A program made the position numbers and the translations under genes. Below, piece by piece: positions 52,731-64,000 of a DNA stretch of 64,000 bases (position 1 is its first letter; each line of letters starts with the position of its first letter). The notes under the pieces are model-generated. The model worked only from the letters and a program-made list of their open reading frames with translations. It made no database searches and was not told where the DNA came from. The DNA lies in the NCBI RefSeq assembly GCF_055900595.2, contig NZ_CM148325.1; one strand, 5' to 3'.

Positions 52731-53738
<1,008 letters not shown>

Positions 53739-54067: not shown

Positions 54068-54481
54068 ATGGCTAATAAACCTTCGGCAGAAGAACTGAAA
54101 AAAAATTTGTCCGAGATGCAGTTCTACGTGACGCAGAATCATGGGACAGAGCCGCCATTTACGGGTCGTTTACTGCATAACAAGCGTGACGGCGTATATC
54201 ACTGTTTGATCTGCGATGCCCCGCTGTTTCATTCCCAAACCAAGTATGATTCCGGCTGTGGCTGGCCCAGTTTCTACGAACCGGTGAGTGAAGAATCCAT
54301 TCGTTATATCAAAGACTTGTCACATGGAATGCAGCGCATAGAAATTCGTTGCGGTAACTGTGATGCCCATCTGGGGCATGTCTTCCCCGACGGGCCGCAG
54401 CCAACGGGTGAACGTTATTGTGTTAACTCAGCCTCTTTACGCTTTACCGATGGCGAAAACGGCGAAGAAATCAACGGTTGA
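54068..54481 (+). CDS. msrB: peptide methionine sulfoxide reductase MsrB
   Basis: Track ORF 54038..54481 trimmed to ATG at 54068 ([33 protein letters not shown]...); CxxC zinc pairs present. Confidence 0.93.
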
Positions 54482-54522
54482 AAAAACGATTCAGCAACTT
54501 ATTCCACAGGAGCGGAAAAATT

Positions 54523-54795
54523 ATGAATCTTGATGACATTATCAACAGCATGACGCCTGATGTATACCAGCGTTTGTCGACTGCCGTTGAGCTGGGGAAA
54601 TGGCCCGATGGCGTTGCGCTGACCGAGGAACAAAAAGAGAACTGCCTACAGCTGGTGATGCTGTGGCAAGCCCGCCATAATACCGAAGCACAGCATATGA
54701 CAATTGACACACATGGTCAGATGGTTATGAAGAGCAAACAACAGTTAAAAGAAGATTTTGGTATCTCAGCAAAGCCTATTGCCATGTTTAAGTGA
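54523..54795 (+). CDS. yeaC: DUF1315 protein YeaC
   Basis: Track ORF 54478..54795 trimmed to ATG at 54523 (MNLDDIINSMTPDVYQRLSTAVELGKWPDG...). Confidence 0.88.
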   Translation: MNLDDIINSMTPDVYQRLSTAVELGKWPDGVALTEEQKENCLQLVMLWQARHNTEAQHMTIDTHGQMVMKSKQQLKEDFGISAKPIAMFK

Positions 54796-54901
54796 ATGAG
54801 TTGTCTAGTATTTAAGCCTGTTATTAAGGGAGGGCAAATAGACTTGTTCGGACGTCGTGTTTTAGCTGCAAGTAGGTTAAATGCAACACTGACAAGTATT
54901 A

Positions 54902-54938
54902 TCTGGCCTACAATGTCATTGAGGAAATGTAGGCCAGA
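54902..54938. repeat. 11-bp perfect inverted repeat in the yeaC-pncA junction
   Basis: tctggcctaca ... (15-nt loop) ... tgtaggccaga; no adjacent U-run on either strand. Confidence 0.6.
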
Positions 54939-54955
54939 GATGAATCCAACTAATA

Positions 54956-55597
54956 TTACTCCTGCGTCTCTTCCCAGTCTGCAAGCGTATATAGCGTTGC
55001 CCCAGCTGCTGACATCTCCATAAACGCGTGCGCACTGTCCTGTGGCTGGATATTCACGCCACGACAACCATCGGTAATCACATTAACCTTATAACCTAAC
55101 TGTAACGCGTCCAGCACGGTAAACTTCACGCAATAGTCAGTAGCCAGGCCCATAATGATCAATTCATCGATTTCATGATCGCGTAACCAGTCATCGAGCG
55201 TGGTTTTCTGCCGACGGCCGTTATCAAAAAAGGCACTGTAACTGTCAACTAAAGGATTTTCGCCTTTATGGAACACCGCTGCGATCGCTTTTTGGTTCAG
55301 TAACGGATGTAATTGTGCGCCTTCACTGTTCTGCACACAGTGATCTGGCCAGAAGGTTTGTGGCAAACCGTCGATTTGGCCTGGCGTATAAGGCTCTACA
55401 CCGTGCTGACTGGCAAAACTGCCGTGATTCGCCGGGTGCCAGTCTTGACTGGCGATAACCGCTTCACCGCGTGACTGGCACCAGTCAATCAGGCGGTTAG
55501 CGACATCCACCGTACTGTCACCTTCCGGCACGGCGAGCGCGCCACCAGCACAGAAATCATTTTGTAAATCGACCAGTAACAGGGCGCGAGGGGGCAT
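54956..55597 (-). CDS. pncA: nicotinamidase/pyrazinamidase PncA
   Basis: Track ORF 54956..55615 trimmed to ATG at 55597 (MPPRALLLVDLQNDFCAGGALAV...). Confidence 0.93.
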   Translation of the reverse strand: MPPRALLLVDLQNDFCAGGALAVPEGDSTVDVANRLIDWCQSRGEAVIASQDWHPANHGSFASQHGVEPYTPGQIDGLPQTFWPDHCVQNSEGAQLHPLLNQKAIAAVFHKGENPLVDSYSAFFDNGRRQKTTLDDWLRDHEIDELIIMGLATDYCVKFTVLDALQLGYKVNVITDGCRGVNIQPQDSAHAFMEMSAAGATLYTLADWEETQE

Positions 55598-55607
55598 TGC
55601 AGTCTCC

Positions 55608-56624
55608 TTAATCATCCGGCGTCAGTTCGCCGCGCAGGTTTTGGCTCATGGCCTTGCGAATGGTTTCAGTATCCAGTTCCTGGCTAAGCAGGTAATGCAG
55701 TTTGGTTAGCGTGGCTTCTACAGTCATATCTGCACCGCCAATAACGCCGGCATGGGCGAGGGCGTTACCGGTGGCATAACCCCCCATGTTCACTTTACCG
55801 GACATACATTGTGTCAGGTTGACTACCACAATTCCGCGATCGCTGGCTTCTTGTAATTCTTGCAGGAAGGCTTTGTTTTGTGGCGCATTACCCACGCCAT
55901 ATGAGCGCAGAATCAATGCTTTCACCGGTTGGCGCAGAAAATTGCGCACGACGTCAGCAGAAATCCCTGGATAAATCGTCACTACGCCAATTGGTTGTGG
56001 GGTGATTGGATGAACGATCAATTCCCCTTCACCGTGCGGGGCGGGTGGCGTATTCAAACGACGAATATGGATACCTGCTTCCAGTAACGGAGGAAGGTTT
56101 GGAGAGGCAAACGCATCAAAACCATCGGCATGGGCTTTGGTGGTACGGTTGCCACGATAAAGTCGATTATTAAAAAAGAGAGTTACTTCGTTGATAGGAT
56201 AATTCGCCGCAACGTACAACGCATTCAGCAGATTAATTTGTCCGTCAGAGCGTAACTCAGCCAGCGGGATTTGTGACCCTGTCACAATGACCGGTTTACC
56301 GAGATTCTCGAGCATGAACGACAGCGCAGAGGCGGTATACGCCATCGTGTCGGTGCCGTGCAGAATGACAAAACCATCATAGTCGTCATAATGCGCTTTA
56401 ATATCTTCAGCAATATGCTGCCAGTCTTCTGGCGTCATATCTGAAGAGTCCATCAGCGGCGTATATTCATGAATGGTGAAATCTGGCATCTCCGGGCGAT
56501 GGAATTCCGGCATCAGCGCCAGTTGGCGTTGTAGATGACCTGACACCGGAATATAACCCTGCTCGGAACGCTGCATCCCGATGGTCCCGCCCGTGTAGGC
56601 GACGTAAATTGATTTCTTTTGCAT
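55608..56624 (-). CDS. ansA: cytoplasmic L-asparaginase 1 (AnsA)
   Basis: 338-aa ORF MQKKSIYVAYTGGTIGMQRSEQGYIPVSGH...; start 10 nt upstream of pncA. Confidence 0.95.
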   Translation of the reverse strand: MQKKSIYVAYTGGTIGMQRSEQGYIPVSGHLQRQLALMPEFHRPEMPDFTIHEYTPLMDSSDMTPEDWQHIAEDIKAHYDDYDGFVILHGTDTMAYTASALSFMLENLGKPVIVTGSQIPLAELRSDGQINLLNALYVAANYPINEVTLFFNNRLYRGNRTTKAHADGFDAFASPNLPPLLEAGIHIRRLNTPPAPHGEGELIVHPITPQPIGVVTIYPGISADVVRNFLRQPVKALILRSYGVGNAPQNKAFLQELQEASDRGIVVVNLTQCMSGKVNMGGYATGNALAHAGVIGGADMTVEATLTKLHYLLSQELDTETIRKAMSQNLRGELTPDD

Positions 56625-56755: not shown

Positions 56756-57478
56756 TTAATCCTGCAACGCATAGGTTACGGTGGTGACTACGCGTACCGT
56801 TTTATTAATCGCCGTAGGATCATCTTCATCACTGCCACTGGCGAAGATCTGGAACACGCCTTGTGAGGCATCGCTAATTGACCCCACCTGGCTACCTGAG
56901 TCCGTTGCAAATTGTAATGCTGCGTTGCGTGCATCTTTGGTGGCGGCGGCAATCATCTCAGCGCGCAGTGCGCCAATACCATTAAAGCGATAGGCGACTT
57001 TGCTCTCAGCGATAGCGCCCTCCGTAGCGACTTGCAGTTCGTTTAATTTCGCGACGACTTTTTCGACAGCAGCAACATTATGGGTTTTTATCGTCACTGA
57101 CCCGTCTGCGTTATAGCGTGGCATTGTGGGATCATCTTTCAGATAAAAGGAATCTGTTCGCTTGCTTGTCCATTGGCCCAGGGTTATCTCTTTCTCGTTA
57201 ATCCCCTGAGCATTGAGTTCGGCAACAATTTTTTTCTGCGCGTCTTCCAGTTTCGGGAACAGTTCGCCGGGAATATTACCCTTAAAGTTAATCGCAATTG
57301 TTAATTCTGCCGTATCTGCGCGAACTTCTTTTTCAGAAAGCCCACGCACATTTACATAACGGTTATTGGTTTTCAAATGTTTAACACCATCGCCAACAAA
57401 ATAACCACAGGCGCTAATCCCCAGTCCGAGGACGATAGCGGCAATTAAAGAGGGGGCCTTATTCACTGATGACTCCAT
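56756..57478 (-). CDS. SIMPL/DUF541-like putative lipoprotein
   Basis: C-terminal ~240 codons of track ORF 56756..57925; ATG at 57478 (MESSVNK...) or, better supported, GTG at 57466 with GGAG 6 nt upstream giving (M)NKAPSLIAAIVLGLGISAC lipobox signal; family call from recalled SIMPL architecture. Confidence 0.55.
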   Translation of the reverse strand: MESSVNKAPSLIAAIVLGLGISACGYFVGDGVKHLKTNNRYVNVRGLSEKEVRADTAELTIAINFKGNIPGELFPKLEDAQKKIVAELNAQGINEKEITLGQWTSKRTDSFYLKDDPTMPRYNADGSVTIKTHNVAAVEKVVAKLNELQVATEGAIAESKVAYRFNGIGALRAEMIAAATKDARNAALQFATDSGSQVGSISDASQGVFQIFASGSDEDDPTAINKTVRVVTTVTYALQD

Positions 57479-57717
57479 ATCAGATGCTAAATGAGCAAGG
57501 GAATGTAGTGGAGAGAGGGAGTGAAAGACAGTCCGATTCAGGAGTGTGGCCGACAGCATATCGGCCACATTTTTGTGCACAGAAAACCCCCAGCTAGGCT
57601 GGGGGTTCCGGAAAGCTTTCAGCTTTGAGCCAGTTATTAAAACCCCTTTTGATTTGTTAAAACACCTTGCGGTCTGGCAACTGCAAGTGTCAAACAAGAA
57701 ATCAAAAGGGGGTCCCA

Positions 57718-58176
57718 ATGGGGGACGAAAAGAGCTTAGCGCACACCCGCTGGAACTGTAAATATCACATAGTTTTTGCGCCGAAATACCGAAGACTGGC
57801 GTTTTACGGAGAGAAGCGTAGGGCGATAGGCAGTATTTTGAGAAAGCTGTGTGAGTGGAAAAGCGTACGGATTCTGGAAGCAGAGTGCTGCGCAGATCAT
57901 ATCCATATGCTTGTGGAAATCCCACCCAAAATGAGCGTATCCGGCTTTATGGGATATCTGAAAGGGAAAAGCAGTCTGATGCTTTACGAGCAGTTTGGGG
58001 ATTTGAAATTCAAATACAGAAACAGGGAGTTCTGGTGCCGAGGGTACTATGTCGATACGGTGGGTAAGAACACGGCGAAGATACAGGACTACATAAAGCA
58101 CCAGCTTGAAGAGGATAAAATGGGGGAGCAGTTATCGATTCCATATCCGGGCAGCCCGTTTACGGGCCGTAAGTAA
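57718..58176 (+). CDS. tnpA: IS200 transposase TnpA (HUH/Y1 family)
   Basis: Track ORF 57667..58176 trimmed to ATG at 57718: MGDEKSLAHTRWNCKYHIVFAPKYRR...HIHMLVEIPPK...; HUH motif (HIHML) and catalytic-Tyr region recognisable. Confidence 0.92.
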   Translation: MGDEKSLAHTRWNCKYHIVFAPKYRRLAFYGEKRRAIGSILRKLCEWKSVRILEAECCADHIHMLVEIPPKMSVSGFMGYLKGKSSLMLYEQFGDLKFKYRNREFWCRGYYVDTVGKNTAKIQDYIKHQLEEDKMGEQLSIPYPGSPFTGRK

Positions 58177-58252
58177 CGAAGTTGAATGCAAATGTCAGAT
58201 CGTATGCGCCTGTTAGGGCGCGGCTGGTAACAGAGCCTTACAGGCGCATTTG

Positions 58253-58276
58253 AAAAACCTCCGGCTATGCCGGAGG
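58253..58276 (-). terminator. intrinsic terminator 16 nt downstream of sppA stop
   Basis: minus-strand stem cctccgg / ccggagg with 5-nt loop followed by UUUUU; may lie inside the IS200 right end. Confidence 0.6.
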
Positions 58277-58292
58277 ATATTTATTGCAGGAT

Positions 58293-60149
58293 TTAACGCA
58301 CGTTGGCGCAGGTCAGGCAAAACGCATAACGGTTTTGTGGGTCGTTAAACGCTGCCAGCTTGTCGCTTTCACTTTTAACGGTAGAGGCTACCGAGGCCAG
58401 CGGTGCAGGTAACATGGCCTGGAACGCATCTGGCAACATTGCCCGGACAGAACCAGACATATTGTCCATCACTTTGTCGAAGAAGGTCGGTTCATCAACG
58501 TAGTATTCCAGATGCCACTGTTTCACTTTTGCCAGCTCTGCCGCTTTGGCAACCGCATCATCGAAATCCCCGAGACTATCGACCAGCCCGTTAGCTTTTG
58601 CATCCTGACCGGTCCAGACGTGGCCCTGGGCGATTTTATCAATCTGCTCCGGCGTCGAATGACGCGCATCAGCAACCAGCGTGATAAAGCGTTTATAGCC
58701 ATTCTCAATGCTTAACTGCATCATCTGCTGCGCTTCCGGCGGCAGTGCCTTGGTGATAGAAACATCCGCTAGCGGTGAAGTTGAGACGCCATCGGTATGA
58801 ACACCAATCGAATCCAAACTATTTTCTACGGTAGTGATCACGCCGAAGATACCGATAGAACCGGTCAGGGTGCTGGGGTTAGCCACAATGTAATTAGCTG
58901 GCGTGGAAATCCAGTAACCACCAGATGCCGCCATGCCGCCCATCGATACAACCACCGGCTTACCCGCTGCCCTGGCTGCTGCCAGTTCAGCGCGAATCAC
59001 TTCAGAGGCGGTAACGCTGCCGCCAGGGCTATTAACACGCAGAACAATCGCTTTCACTTTCGGGTCAAGGCGAGCGTCGCGGATTTGTGCCGCAGTGGTA
59101 TCACCGCCAACATTCCCCTGAGTTTCCTCGCCATCCATAATTGCGCCATTAGCGAAGACGACACCGATACTGTCACCGGTATCTGCCGGCGTTTTCAATG
59201 CGTAATCGTAATAACTGATGGCGCGATAATTTTTATCAGTCTTACTCCAGCCGAACTCTTTGGTCAGAGCTTTTTCGATTTCGGCACTTGATGCCAGTGC
59301 ATCGACCAGCTTGTTTTCCAGCGCATATTTCGCGGTATCGCCACCGGTTTTGGTTAAACCCTTAAGCAACCCTTGCGCACCAGGGAATACCTGCTGAGCA
59401 GGGATCTGCCGGTTAGCGGCAACAGTATTCAGATAGTTTTGCCACAGCTCACCGATCCAGCGGCTGTCAGCTTCGCGGGCTGCCGGTGACATATCATCAC
59501 GAATAAACGGTTCAACGGCAGATTTATACGTACCCACGCGGAACACATGGGTGGAAACTTTCAGCTTATCCAGCAACGATTTGTAGTACAGGCCGTTGGT
59601 AGCAAAACCGTGCAGATCCACCACGCCTTGTGGAGATAGCCAAATTTTGTTGGCGAAACTGGCGAGATAATATTGCCCCTGGCTGTAGTTCTCGCCTATG
59701 GCATAAACTGGTTTCCCGCTGTCACGAAACTCTTTCAGGGCTTTGCCGATGTACTGCATAGACGGCTGGTCGCCGCCTGCGAAGTTTTTCAGATCCATCA
59801 CGATACCGGTGATATTGCGGTCGTCCTTCGCCTGGCGAATGGTGTTGACGATATCAAACAGTGAGTTTTCCTGCAGACGATCGGAACTGGCACCAAGCAG
59901 CTGGCGGCTTAGCTTACTAAACCGCTGAGAACTGTCGGGTTTATCGACGATTACACCAGATATGTCCAGCAGCAGCGCGCCACGACTGGCCGTTTCTTTC
60001 GAATCACCACCACTGACCTGCATCCAAATCCCCACACCAACCAGTACGAGAAAAATAAAGAACAGGTTAAGTACCATTTCACGGACGAAATTCAGCAGAC
60101 GCCACGTCCATTTAAAAAATCCGGCAATAAATCGCCAAAGGGTTCGCAT
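58293..60149 (-). CDS. sppA: signal peptide peptidase SppA (protease IV)
   Basis: Track ORF 58293..60161 trimmed to ATG at 60149 ([38 protein letters not shown]...); 618 aa. Confidence 0.95.
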
Positions 60150-60309
60150 GTATTCTCCCAACTAAAGGTCACACCTGTCACAGGCGCAATAGATGTGGTT
60201 ATCGTAATGACCCAACCGGCACTTGTCAGCAGGAATTGCGGACTGTGCTGTAACAAAATCCACTCTCGTGTTAATTTTGTGAATAAATATCATGACAGGA
60301 GTTAATCAA

Positions 60310-60861
60310 ATGGATGCACTCGAACTATTGATCAATCGCCGTAGCGCCTCCCGCCTGGCTGAACCTGCGCCAACGGGTGAACAACTGCAAAACATACTGC
60401 GAGCGGGTATGCGTGCCCCGGACCATAAGTCCATGCAACCGTGGCATTTTTTTGTGATTGAAGGGGAAGGACGCGAGCGTTTCAGCGCATTATTGGAACA
60501 GGGGGCGATTGCTGCCGGTAGTGATGACAAAGCTATCGACAAAGCGCGTAATGCGCCGTTCCGCGCACCGCTCATCATAACGGTGGTGGCAAAATGCGAA
60601 GAAAATCATAAAGTCCCGCGCTGGGAACAGGAAATGTCTGCGGGATGTGCGGTCATGGCGATGCAAATGGCAGCAGTTGCCCAGGGGTTTGGCGGCATCT
60701 GGCGCAGTGGCGCATTAACTGAAAGTCCGGTAGTGCGTGAAGCATTCGGTTGCCGTGAGCAGGATAAAATTGTCGGTTTTCTCTACCTTGGTACGCCGCA
60801 GTTGAAAGCATCTACGTCGATAAACGTTCCGGACCCGACGCCGTTTGTGACTTATTTCTGA
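60310..60861 (+). CDS. ydjA: NAD(P)H nitroreductase YdjA
   Basis: Track ORF 60292..60861 trimmed to ATG at 60310 ([30 protein letters not shown]...); 183 aa. Confidence 0.9.
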
Positions 60862-60977
60862 TAATTGTCGCGAAACTGTCTGGATTGTGAGCAAAGGCGC
60901 AGGAATTCAGACACTCTCACTTATCACTTCATGGAATGAGGGTTACCATACCCGGATTGCATTGACAGGAGATGTCC

Positions 60978-62021
60978 ATGAGCGAGAACTCGATTCGTTT
61001 GACCCAATACAGCCACGGTGCAGGTTGCGGCTGTAAAATTTCCCCAAAAGTGTTGGAAACCATCCTGCACAGTGAGCAGGCGAAGTTTGTTGATCCGAAT
61101 TTGCTTGTGGGTAATGAAACCCGCGACGATGCGGCGGTGTACGATCTGGGCAATGGCACCAGCGTTATCAGTACCACCGACTTCTTTATGCCGATCGTTG
61201 ATAATCCTTTCGATTTTGGCCGCATTGCGGCGACTAACGCCATCAGCGATATCTTCGCGATGGGTGGCAAACCGATTATGGCGATTGCGATTCTCGGCTG
61301 GCCTATTAACAAACTTTCCCCTGAAATTGCCCGCGAAGTAACCGAAGGTGGACGCTATGCATGCCGTCAGGCGGGTATTGCGCTGGCTGGCGGTCACTCC
61401 ATCGATGCGCCGGAGCCGATTTTTGGTCTGGCGGTAACGGGGATCGTACCGACCGAGCGGGTGAAGAAAAACAGTACTGCACAAGCCGGATGCAAACTGT
61501 TCCTGACGAAACCGCTGGGAATTGGCGTTCTTACTACGGCTGAGAAAAAATCACTGCTGAAACCAGAACATCAGGGACTAGCGACGGAAGTGATGTGCCG
61601 GATGAACATCGCAGGCGCGTCCTTTGCCAACATCGAAGGCGTAAAAGCGATGACTGACGTGACTGGTTTTGGTCTGCTGGGGCATTTGAGCGAAATGTGT
61701 CAGGGTGCTGGTGTGCAGGCGCGAGTCGACTATGAAGCGATCCCGAAACTGCCGGGGGTTGAAGAGTACATTAAGTTGGGCGCAGTGCCTGGCGGCACCG
61801 AACGTAACTTTGCCAGCTATGGGCATCTGATGGGTGAAATGCCGCGTGAAGTGCGCGATCTGCTGTGCGATCCGCAAACTTCTGGCGGTCTGCTGCTGGC
61901 GGTCATGCCGGAAGCAGAAAATGAGGTCAAAGCTACAGCCGCCGAGTTTGGCATTGAACTGACGGCGATTGGCGAACTGGTGCCAGCGCGCGGCGGTCGT
62001 GCCATGGTTGAGATCCGTTAA
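60978..62021 (+). CDS. selD: selenide, water dikinase (selenophosphate synthetase) SelD
   Basis: Track ORF 60972..62021 trimmed to second ATG at 60978 ([26 protein letters not shown]...). Confidence 0.95.
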
Positions 62022-62025
62022 TTCA

Positions 62026-63981
62026 ATGCGGTTGTTTATTGCCGAAAAACCGAGTCTGGCGCGCGCCATTGCTGATGTCCTGCCCAAACCGCACCGGAAA
62101 GGCGATGGCTTTATCGAGTGCGGTAATGGCCAGGTGGTGACCTGGTGTATCGGTCACCTGCTTGAGCAGGCGCAGCCAGACGCCTACGACAGTCGCTATG
62201 CGCGCTGGAACCTGGCCGATCTCCCCATTGTCCCGGAAAAGTGGCAATTACAGCCACGACCCTCCGTGACCAAACAACTTAACGTCATCAAACGCTTTCT
62301 GCATGAAGCCAGCGAAATCGTTCACGCCGGTGACCCGGACCGTGAAGGGCAATTGCTGGTAGATGAAGTGCTGGACTACCTGCAACTGGCACCAGAAAAG
62401 CGCCAGCAGGTACAGCGTTGTTTGATAAACGACCTGAACCCGCAGGCGGTTGAGCGGGCGATCGATCGTCTTCGCTCCAATAGCGAGTTTGTACCACTGT
62501 GCGTTTCTGCGCTGGCGCGAGCACGAGCCGACTGGTTATACGGCATCAATATGACCCGCGCGTACACCATTCTCGGTCGTAATGCGGGTTATCAGGGCGT
62601 GCTTTCCGTGGGCCGCGTGCAGACGCCCGTGCTCGGGCTGGTGGTGCGCCGCGATGAAGAAATTGAAAACTTCGTGGCGAAAGACTTCTTTGAAGTCAAA
62701 GCGCATATCGTGACACCTGCCGATGAGCGGTTTACCGCTATCTGGCAACCGAGCGAAGCGTGTGAACCGTACCAGGATGAAGAAGGGCGCTTGTTACATC
62801 GTCCGCTGGCGGAGCATGTGGTCAACCGCATCAGCGGCCAACCGGCTATTGTCACCAGCTATAACGATAAACGGGAATCAGAATCCGCACCGCTGCCGTT
62901 TTCGCTTTCGGCGTTGCAGATTGAAGCGGCTAAACGCTTTGGTCTGAGTGCGCAGAACGTGCTTGATATCTGCCAGAAGTTGTACGAAACGCACAAGCTA
63001 ATCACTTATCCGCGTTCCGATTGTCGCTATCTGCCAGAAGAGCATTTTGCCGGACGCCACGCGGTGATGAATGCTATCGGCGTCCATGCGCCGGATCTGT
63101 TGCCGCAACCAGTGGTAGATCCAGATATACGCAACCGCTGTTGGGATGACAAAAAGGTCGATGCGCACCACGCCATCATCCCGACCGCGAGGAGTTCTGC
63201 CATCAACCTGACGGAAAACGAGGCGAAGGTCTATAACCTGATTGCTCGTCAGTATTTGATGCAGTTCTGTCCGGACGCGGTGTTCCGCAAGTGTGTTATC
63301 GAACTGGAAATAGCCAAAGGCAAATTTGTCGCTAAAGCCCGTTTTCTTGCTGAAACAGGCTGGCGCACACTGTTAGGCAGCAAAGAGCGCGATGAAGAAA
63401 ACGACGGCACGCCACTGCCTGTGGTGGCGAAAGGCGATGAGTTGCTGTGTGAAAAAGGTGAAGTGGTAGAGCGGCAAACCCAGCCGCCGCGCCATTTTAC
63501 CGATGCAACACTGCTTTCGGCGATGACCGGGATCGCGCGCTTTGTGCAGGACAAAGATCTGAAAAAGATCCTTCGTGCCACCGATGGTCTGGGGACAGAA
63601 GCAACCCGTGCCGGGATTATTGAACTGTTGTTCAAGCGTGGCTTTCTGACCAAAAAAGGGCGCTATATCCACTCCACCGACGCCGGAAAAGCGTTATTCC
63701 ATTCACTGCCAGAAATGGCTACGCGACCGGACATGACCGCGCACTGGGAATCGGTGCTGACGCAAATCAGCGAAAAGCAGTGCCGCTATCAGGACTTTAT
63801 GCAACCGTTGGTGGGGACGCTGTATCAGTTGATTGATCAGGCCAAACGTACGCCGGTGCGGCAGTTTCGCGGCATAGTGGCTCCAGATGGCGGAGAAGGA
63901 AATAAAAAGACTTCACCCCGTAAGCGAGCAGCGAAAAAAAGCCCGCCAGCAGCAGAGGCGGGCAGTGGAGTGATAATGTAA
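62026..63981 (+). CDS. topB: DNA topoisomerase III (TopB)
   Basis: Track ORF 61969..63981 (TTG-initiated) trimmed to ATG at 62026 ([46 protein letters not shown]...); 4 nt after selD stop. Confidence 0.93.
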
Positions 63982-64000
63982 TGCTCTGATGCAGTCAGTT

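Follow-up and report, generated by a model that had tools for sequence, protein, structure and literature searches.

The window analysed here is a 64,000-nucleotide stretch of contig NZ_CM148325.1, in which two convergent genes, yeaC (+) and pncA (-), are separated by a 160-bp spacer at positions 54796-54955. The left border of the spacer, yeaC (54523-54795, plus strand), is an open reading frame of the DUF1315/YeaC family, with 96% amino acid identity to K-12 YeaC by tblastn, and PGAP annotates it in an identical strain. The right border, pncA (54956-55597, minus strand), is an open reading frame, also annotated by PGAP, for a nicotinamidase/pyrazinamidase with 98% amino acid identity to K-12 PncA. 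The gene order is yeaD(-), gapA(-), msrB(+), yeaC(+), pncA(-), ansA(-), a SIMPL-domain gene(-), an IS200 copy (tnpA, +) and sppA(-). Positions 54400-55700 are 100% identical to E. coli strain Z0117EC0005 (NZ_CP098223.1; source: dog, South Korea), for which PGAP reports the same genes and no CDS in the yeaC-pncA gap. The stop codons, TGA of yeaC at 54793-54795 and that of pncA (complement TTA) at 54956-54958, together with the PGAP annotation of Z0117EC0005, bear out the convergent arrangement with a 160-bp gap that had been described in the initial annotation. Over its 273 positions, the yeaC gene of the window has 10-13 differences from each of the other E. coli alleles examined, and several of these substitutions are private to the lineage, missing even in outgroup species.

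In E. coli K-12 the same two genes flank an operon. The MG1655 chromosome (NC_000913.3) carries pncA (b1768), ydjE, ydjF, ydjG, ydjH, ydjI, ydjJ, ydjK and ydjL (b1769-b1776), and yeaC (b1777), and a second K-12 chromosome likewise has ydjL, K, J, I, H, G, F and E between yeaC and pncA. The K-12 order given in the initial annotation was thus correct in both chromosomes, and eight ydj genes, rather than a direct yeaC-pncA junction, are found in MG1655. The cluster was also rightly said to be missing from the window, where 160 bp stand in place of the 9,173 bp that separate the yeaC and pncA stop codons in K-12. The products of ydjLKJIHGFE comprise two MFS transporters, a DeoR-type regulator, a kinase, an aldolase and dehydrogenases for a long-chain sugar acid; in the MG1655 annotation YdjH is an L-glycero-L-galacto-octuluronate kinase and YdjI the corresponding 1-phosphate aldolase. 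A tblastn search of the window with the eight Ydj proteins returned no ydj homologue beyond YeaE, a distant paralogue of YdjG. The flanks are the same in the ydj-bearing strains K-12, ST131 and WCHEC000837, namely yeaC and pncA with ydjL-E between them. Among the ydj-bearing genomes some copies are damaged (hits H111, H112 and H130): in O157:H7 strains an IS3-family insertion splits an MFS transporter gene of the cluster, and in strain KTa005 only the last 7% of the cluster, corresponding to the 3' end of ydjE, is left.

The frequency of the two arrangements was assessed in 5426 complete E. coli genomes, 5425 of which match a yeaC-pncA query. The site is contiguous in 1089 of the 5426 (20%), and in the remaining matching genomes the query match is broken 5 bp before the pncA stop codon. 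K-12 ydj DNA (8.7 kb) was found in 4336 of the 5426 genomes, or about 80%. The two counts add up to 5425, the number of genomes with the locus; since this is a sum of totals and not a per-genome tally, the two states appear to be mutually exclusive and exhaustive, with no sign of a translocated ydj copy. A relocation of the cluster elsewhere in the genome, which the initial annotation had named as an alternative, thus finds no hint either in this arithmetic or in the tblastn search of the window. A 93-bp stretch of the window that has no K-12 counterpart (54794-54886) occurs in 1086 genomes, in a single place in each and always adjoining yeaC, in agreement with the 1089 genomes that have a contiguous site. 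The exact spacer variant of the window is present in only 13 genomes. Among the matches listed, the empty-site genomes include many O103, O111 and similar STEC strains, serogroups of phylogroup B1. The locus thus shows a chromosomal operon presence/absence polymorphism, with common core flanks, one state that lacks the operon, and both states frequent. In a published survey of 178 E. coli genomes from meat plants, ydjI was carried by all genomes of B2, D and E (100%), by nearly all of phylogroup A (96.6%), by half of C (50%) and by a minority of B1 (29.9%), and the operon was treated as a variable, possibly niche-related trait and proposed as an ecological marker (PMC9602453, Microbiol Spectr 2022). 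The empty site is therefore not specific to one strain; it is a frequent allele, and the polymorphism was already known from that survey.

The spacer of the empty allele is made up of three parts. Its yeaC-proximal part (54796 to about 54841) matches the first ~50 bp past yeaC in K-12, with 33 of 47 aligned bases identical (70%). Its middle (54842-54877, approximate bounds) has no convincing K-12 counterpart and is specific to the empty allele, being found in other empty-site E. coli and in L008 (NZ_JAATUR010000030.1), a GTDB species representative labelled "E. coli SCPM-O-B-8794" that belongs to a cryptic clade of Escherichia. The pncA-proximal flank (from about 54878 to 54955) is homologous to the ydjE-pncA spacer, with identities of 53/73 (73%) to K-12 and 64/84 (76%) to the ydj-bearing Escherichia sp. 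E1V33. When the spacer was compared by BLAST (word size 7) with the 26.7-kb K-12 locus, only the hairpin flank was matched and the 93 bp of its left and middle parts were not. A blastn-short search of the best 80 species loci matched the middle in L008 only, and otherwise the hairpin flanks. Over its whole length the spacer is identical to that of L008 at 122 of 158 positions (77%). In L008 (9546-11082), msrB and yeaC stand at 15-23 mismatches from E. whittamii and E1V33, with which they group, and at 30-48 from E. coli. For pncA the order is reversed, with 38-43 mismatches to E. coli, which is much the closer, and 79-86 to the other two. The L008 pattern points to an interspecies recombination breakpoint at the yeaC-pncA spacer.

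Occupied alleles contain a second stem-loop, ATCCCCTT-N14-AAGGGGAT, just past the yeaC stop (L001 3833-3870 in K-12). It is kept in E. whittamii, E1V33, E. albertii and Escherichia sp. MOD1-EC7003, and the ATCCCCTT...AAGGGGAT structure is decayed in the window-type empty allele and in L008.

The initial annotation had dismissed the two open reading frames called in the spacer as spurious, and this is supported. Neither 54796-55023(+) nor 54717-55067(-) has an NCBIfam match, and PGAP annotates neither. The minus-strand frame is interrupted by a stop codon in RM8385. In the plus-strand frame, 8 of ~10 changes among three E. coli alleles are non-synonymous, and the frame is truncated and different in L008. 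Given that no conserved frame, purifying selection or family match was found, a coding reading of the two frames was rejected.

The most conspicuous feature of the spacer is a hairpin at 54902-54938, recognised by reading the sequence and by folding, with arms TCTGGCCTACA (54902-54912) and TGTAGGCCAGA (54928-54938) that form 11 perfect pairs around a 15-nt loop. The 8-bp core palindrome GGCCTACA-N15-TGTAGGCC occurs once in the window and in none of 100 shuffles. On the pncA strand, the region with its flanks folds at -23.3 kcal/mol (z = -2.9); the opposite strand reaches -20 kcal/mol, and z over the two lies between -2.5 and -2.9. Six of the 11 pairs of the stem are G-C, as in the GC-rich stem-loop of an intrinsic terminator, and a terminator scan of 54400-55100 found no T-run site on either strand. 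Both parts of the earlier description, an 11-bp perfect inverted repeat and the lack of a U-run, are thus confirmed. The sequence 3' of the stem reads AGAUAAUACUU on the pncA strand and GAUGAAUCC on the yeaC strand. A promoter consensus scan gave one promoter-like site, at chance level. A search of 53.7-58.4 kb against Rfam 15 at a permissive E-value returned no real family in the spacer, the only one in the region being STnc490 of IS200; the best overlap at the hairpin was a chance-level match to mir-2796 (22.5 bits against a gathering score of 72, E = 0.15).

K-12 has the same hairpin between ydjE and pncA (L001 12948-12998, 80% identity), with its arms intact and most differences in the loop. 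A 69-bp hairpin query matched 5369 genomes, in exactly one copy each. In 1087 of these the region is 95-100% identical (empty sites), and in the other 4282 it falls in an 80-90% band (occupied sites; 80.4-82.4% in the rows sampled). We compared eight sequences, namely the window, two empty and two occupied E. coli alleles, the occupied alleles of E. whittamii and E1V33, and the empty allele of L008. In all of them the arms GGCCTACA/TGTAGGCC are invariant, and the loops differ. By BLAST, K-12 homology restarts at 54887, 15 bp ahead of the hairpin, and pairwise alignments push this point to about 54878, about 25 bp ahead. The suggestion that the hairpin marks a conserved empty-site junction did not hold up: it is a single-copy element of both alleles, K-12 included, and homology restarts before it, which makes it part of the 3' flank of pncA. 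Its distance past the pncA stop codon is 17 nt here and about 7 nt in K-12.

Flanking genes differ by 1-4% among E. coli of either allele type, in contrast to a spacer whose homologous stretches are ~70-73% identical to K-12. The rise in divergence is sharp and coincides with the stop codon of yeaC, a TGA where the site is empty and a TAA in the E. coli alleles that are occupied. Across the 1086 genomes the empty allele itself is 95.7-100% identical. Strains 14EC020 (empty) and WCHEC000837 (occupied) have identical YeaC and PncA proteins, and allele state is therefore uncoupled from the flanking haplotype. This uncoupling, and the contrast between 70-73% identity in the spacer and 96-99% in the genes, argue that the two alleles are old haplotypes whose flanks have been homogenised by recombination up to the indel, and that the window strain has not undergone a recent deletion. 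Our preferred reading, in which we have considerable confidence, is that of an old two-allele locus, the alleles of which are exchanged by homologous recombination and both of which retain the hairpin in the pncA flank.

The window provides a possible example of such an exchange. It was compared with strain 81009, which we take to be ST131, as we do several of the strains with IS200 at the window site; 81009 carries both ydj and the SIMPL gene. Mismatches to 81009 per 500 bp number 0-4 over 51.0-53.0 kb and 0-1 over 56.5-57.6 kb; past IS200, the 58.0-kb bin, which is covered in part, has 4. Within the alignable part of 53.0-56.5 kb there are 79 mismatches, many of them private against all five comparators. 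The mismatch positions, counted per 500 bp, delimit a tract of raised divergence (~2.4%) with approximate bounds at 53106 and 56529. Local identity to 81009, together with the sequence type presumed for that strain, would place the window in an ST131-like background, in which a ~3.5-kb tract carrying the empty allele would have replaced about 12.6 kb by homologous recombination. The reverse event, a replacement in the ST131 lineage, would give an identical mismatch pattern. With no donor among the five comparators, the argument for import is the divergence contrast itself, and on that basis the 3.5-kb tract was probably imported.

Nothing at the ends of the cluster speaks for a mobile element. 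A search for direct and inverted repeats at the ydj ends of four occupied alleles found shared sequences of at most 6-7 bp, which are chance matches, and no integrase, IS, transposase or tRNA is annotated in or beside ydj in K-12, WCHEC000837 or 81009. With neither mobility genes nor flanking repeats longer than 7 bp, the cluster does not qualify as a mobile genomic island. The nearby IS200 lies 2.6 kb from the spacer, beyond ansA, and is at this site in only 8 genomes. The alleles would thus pass between lineages through homologous recombination in the flanking core genes, not by way of a mobile element.

Which of the two states came first was approached through a survey of the best 80 Enterobacteriaceae loci found with YeaC, among which representatives of E. 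coli, E. fergusonii and E. marmotae do not figure. In 16 of the 80 loci ydj is at the site (E. whittamii, E1V33, Citrobacter, the Klebsiella oxytoca group, Intestinirhabdus and one MAG). In 28, including Salmonella arizonae and diarizonae, Kosakonia and Phytobacter, pncA lies less than 500 bp from yeaC. Another 30 hold other cargo of 1.3-8.6 kb, and 6 were unassigned. In the named taxa the amino acid identities of the ydj proteins to K-12 (84-96% in Citrobacter) are similar to or above those of the flanking genes, and identities no lower than those of the flanks fit a long residence at the site. Within the genus, E. albertii retains about 190 bp of the yeaC-ydjL spacer, after which its short contig diverges, and MOD1-EC7003 has a structurally different empty allele, on the left side of which the flank hardly differs from that of occupied E. 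coli. On balance we lean towards an occupied state that was ancestral for the genus Escherichia, the empty alleles having arisen by deletion and through more than one loss. Against a settled polarity, Salmonella and many other genera have yeaC beside pncA, and the junction sequences give no directional clue.

The opposite polarity takes the empty site as ancestral and K-12 as the derived form, a ydj catabolic islet having entered the yeaC-pncA interval before it spread. It draws on the adjacency of the two genes in those 28 loci, on the use of the interval as a hotspot with other cargo in 30 more, and on the GC content of the K-12 ydj segment, 46.4% as against 48.5% and 51.6% in the flanks. 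We nevertheless regard it as unlikely. Five genera carry the cluster at this one site, with its orientation unchanged, its divergence from Citrobacter is no greater than that of the flanking genes, occupied alleles or remnants of them are present in E. coli, E. whittamii, E1V33, E. albertii and MOD1-EC7003, and no insertion signature is seen at the ydj ends.

The surveyed loci indicate that the yeaC-pncA interval is a family-wide hotspot for cargo. Between the two genes, many species of Citrobacter, Enterobacter and Klebsiella encode a 430-aa secreted protein that, as read by eye, is GH18 chitinase-like. A small HNH-motif protein (HHIDHDHSNNPEDGSNWEMLC...), likewise read by eye, occupies the slot alone or together with the GH18-like protein. 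These readings were made on loci L012 (10334-12107) and L051 (10325-11617) and on the spacers of L019, L023, L028 and L079. In Kluyvera the slot holds 7.7-8.6 kb of other cargo.

A more ambitious reading would treat the ydj/empty dimorphism as a trans-species polymorphism under niche-dependent balancing selection, with the GGCCTACA hairpin as a functional RNA 3'-end element in both haplotypes. If this were true, the empty allele would be an ancient haplotype that predates the diversification of E. coli and passes between species and phylogroups; we consider this doubtful. In a weaker variant of the same reading, the spacer of the empty allele may encode a small product coupled to yeaC, since an ATG directly abuts the yeaC stop codon (TGAATG).

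As regards the hairpin, its position near the pncA stop codon, its conserved arms and its variable loop make it most likely a 3' stem-loop of the ansA-pncA transcript, with a protective or terminating role. In the window-type allele, where the yeaC-proximal hairpin is decayed, it may also serve read-through yeaC transcripts. The stem is invariant in all eight sequences and therefore offers no compensatory change by which conservation of RNA structure might be told from conservation of DNA sequence. In genera with adjacent yeaC and pncA, a strong stem-loop, unrelated in sequence, is predicted by folding for most of the short spacers, which fits a generic need for a 3'-end structure between convergent genes.

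An alternative is that the hairpin belongs to the REP/BIME-type repeats, or acts as a recombination site, and favoured the loss or gain of the cluster. Its arms end in GGCCTACA, which resembles the tail of E. coli REP sequences, and in the context of the left arm TTATCTGGCCTACA departs from the REP tail TTATCCGGCCTACA by a single mismatch. At the equivalent position Escherichia sp. ESNIH1 shows GCCCGGCCTACA...TGTAGGCCCGG, which is REP-like, and no more than about 25 bp separate the hairpin from the boundary between the alleles. Such a role is very improbable. REP and BIME palindromes are dispersed in many copies per genome; this sequence is single-copy, occurring exactly once in each of the 5369 genomes, and the REP reading was rejected on that account. 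There is no further GGCCTACA palindrome in the 64-kb window, and the motif GGCCTACA is unenriched there (3 matches against 1.3 expected). The hairpin is equally present in occupied alleles, outside the ydj cluster, it has no matching repeat at the opposite end of the cluster, and no REP feature is annotated at the site in MG1655.

Scarcely credible, finally, is a recent deletion in the window lineage, by which illegitimate recombination in a K-12-like ancestor would have left the 160-bp spacer as a scar: although the spacer combines yeaC-proximal and pncA-proximal pieces that are both homologous to the K-12 flanks, and ydj is carried by the nearest relatives to either side of the tract (ST131), the scar of a recent event should be an almost exact match to occupied flanks, as the left side of MOD1-EC7003 is, whereas here the retained flanks are 70-73% identical to occupied alleles as against 96-99% in the neighbouring genes, about 36 bp in the middle of the spacer are without a K-12 counterpart, a 77% version exists in another Escherichia species, and the same allele is shared at 95.7-100% by 1086 genomes of diverse backgrounds, which differ in host, serotype and flanking haplotype and are not one clone.

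The two-allele locus has variable neighbours, and the description of 54.8-58.3 kb as the variable part of the window holds, with the ydj site, the SIMPL gene and IS200 all varying among genomes. The SIMPL-domain protein gene (56756-57466, minus strand, annotated by PGAP), located between ansA and sppA, was found in 943 of the 5426 E. coli genomes, among them ST131 (99.9% identity) and O157:H7 (97.9%). It is missing from K-12 and O103 RM8385, and MOD1-EC7003 has it at 96% amino acid identity. In NCBIfam its product matches PRK11087, 'oxidative stress defense protein', only weakly, at 19.5 bits where the cutoff is 249. The gene is a second, independent presence/absence polymorphism, 1.7 kb from the ydj site. 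The IS200 copy (57576-58278, plus strand; tnpA at 57718-58176) is delimited by genomes that lack it, in which homology ends at 57575 and restarts at 58279. Its 5' end carries a structured RNA, the Hfq-binding STnc490 of Rfam, at 57585-57708 (+), which scores 146 bits where the gathering score is 56. In each of the 8 genomes that share the insertion there are 15-17 matching places, and the lineage is therefore rich in IS200. Further along, 58500-64000 (sppA to topB) is ~4% diverged alike from K-12 (A), O103 RM8385 (B1) and ST131 81009 (B2), climbing to 5-8% per 500 bp near 62.5-64 kb, which is high for core genes within a species. This divergence suggests either a deep-branching lineage or another imported tract.

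The practical consequences are mostly ones of annotation. K-12 is no universal template at this locus, as the ydj sugar-acid pathway is missing from a fifth of complete E. coli genomes. For simple typing, the exact sequence of the empty site and the two discrete haplotypes of its flanks could be used as a marker, and the locus could illustrate how an operon is lost or gained when its core flanks recombine homologously. The result on the hairpin guards against mistaking a conserved 3' structure of pncA for a deletion scar. Only the depth of divergence between the spacer haplotypes and their sharing across Escherichia species are mildly notable, and the importance of the locus beyond annotation and population genetics is little.

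Several features recall known systems. The hairpin resembles the U-tract-less 3' stem-loops that block 3' exonucleases on mRNAs, such as processed Rho-terminated ends and REP stabilisers. It has a stable stem of 11-12 bp without a U-run, 17 nt past the pncA stop here and ~7 nt in K-12, with arms conserved and a loop that varies across Escherichia. Unlike REP stabilisers it is single-copy and not a REP, and its role as such a barrier here is putative.

Core-flanked accessory-gene hotspots that are exchanged by homologous recombination in E. coli are a general concept of pangenome studies. The yeaC-pncA site shares with them a fixed position, the lack of mobility genes, a state uncoupled from the flanking haplotype, and the presence of other cargo in other genera (GH18 chitinase-like proteins, HNH nucleases and 8-kb inserts). 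It differs in that two states, ydj or empty, dominate within E. coli, in place of diverse islands.

The closest precedent is the published ydjI survey, which concerns the same eight genes and agrees with our results in the frequent absence from B1 and the near-universal presence in A, B2, D and E; the 20% of complete genomes that we count as lacking ydj fits those figures (PMC9602453). That paper deals with gene presence only, and differs from the present analysis in leaving aside the empty-site sequence, its deep divergence, its sharing with a cryptic clade and the hairpin. The two also differ in the background concerned, as the window strain appears locally ST131-like, that is B2-like, a background where absence of ydj is unusual.
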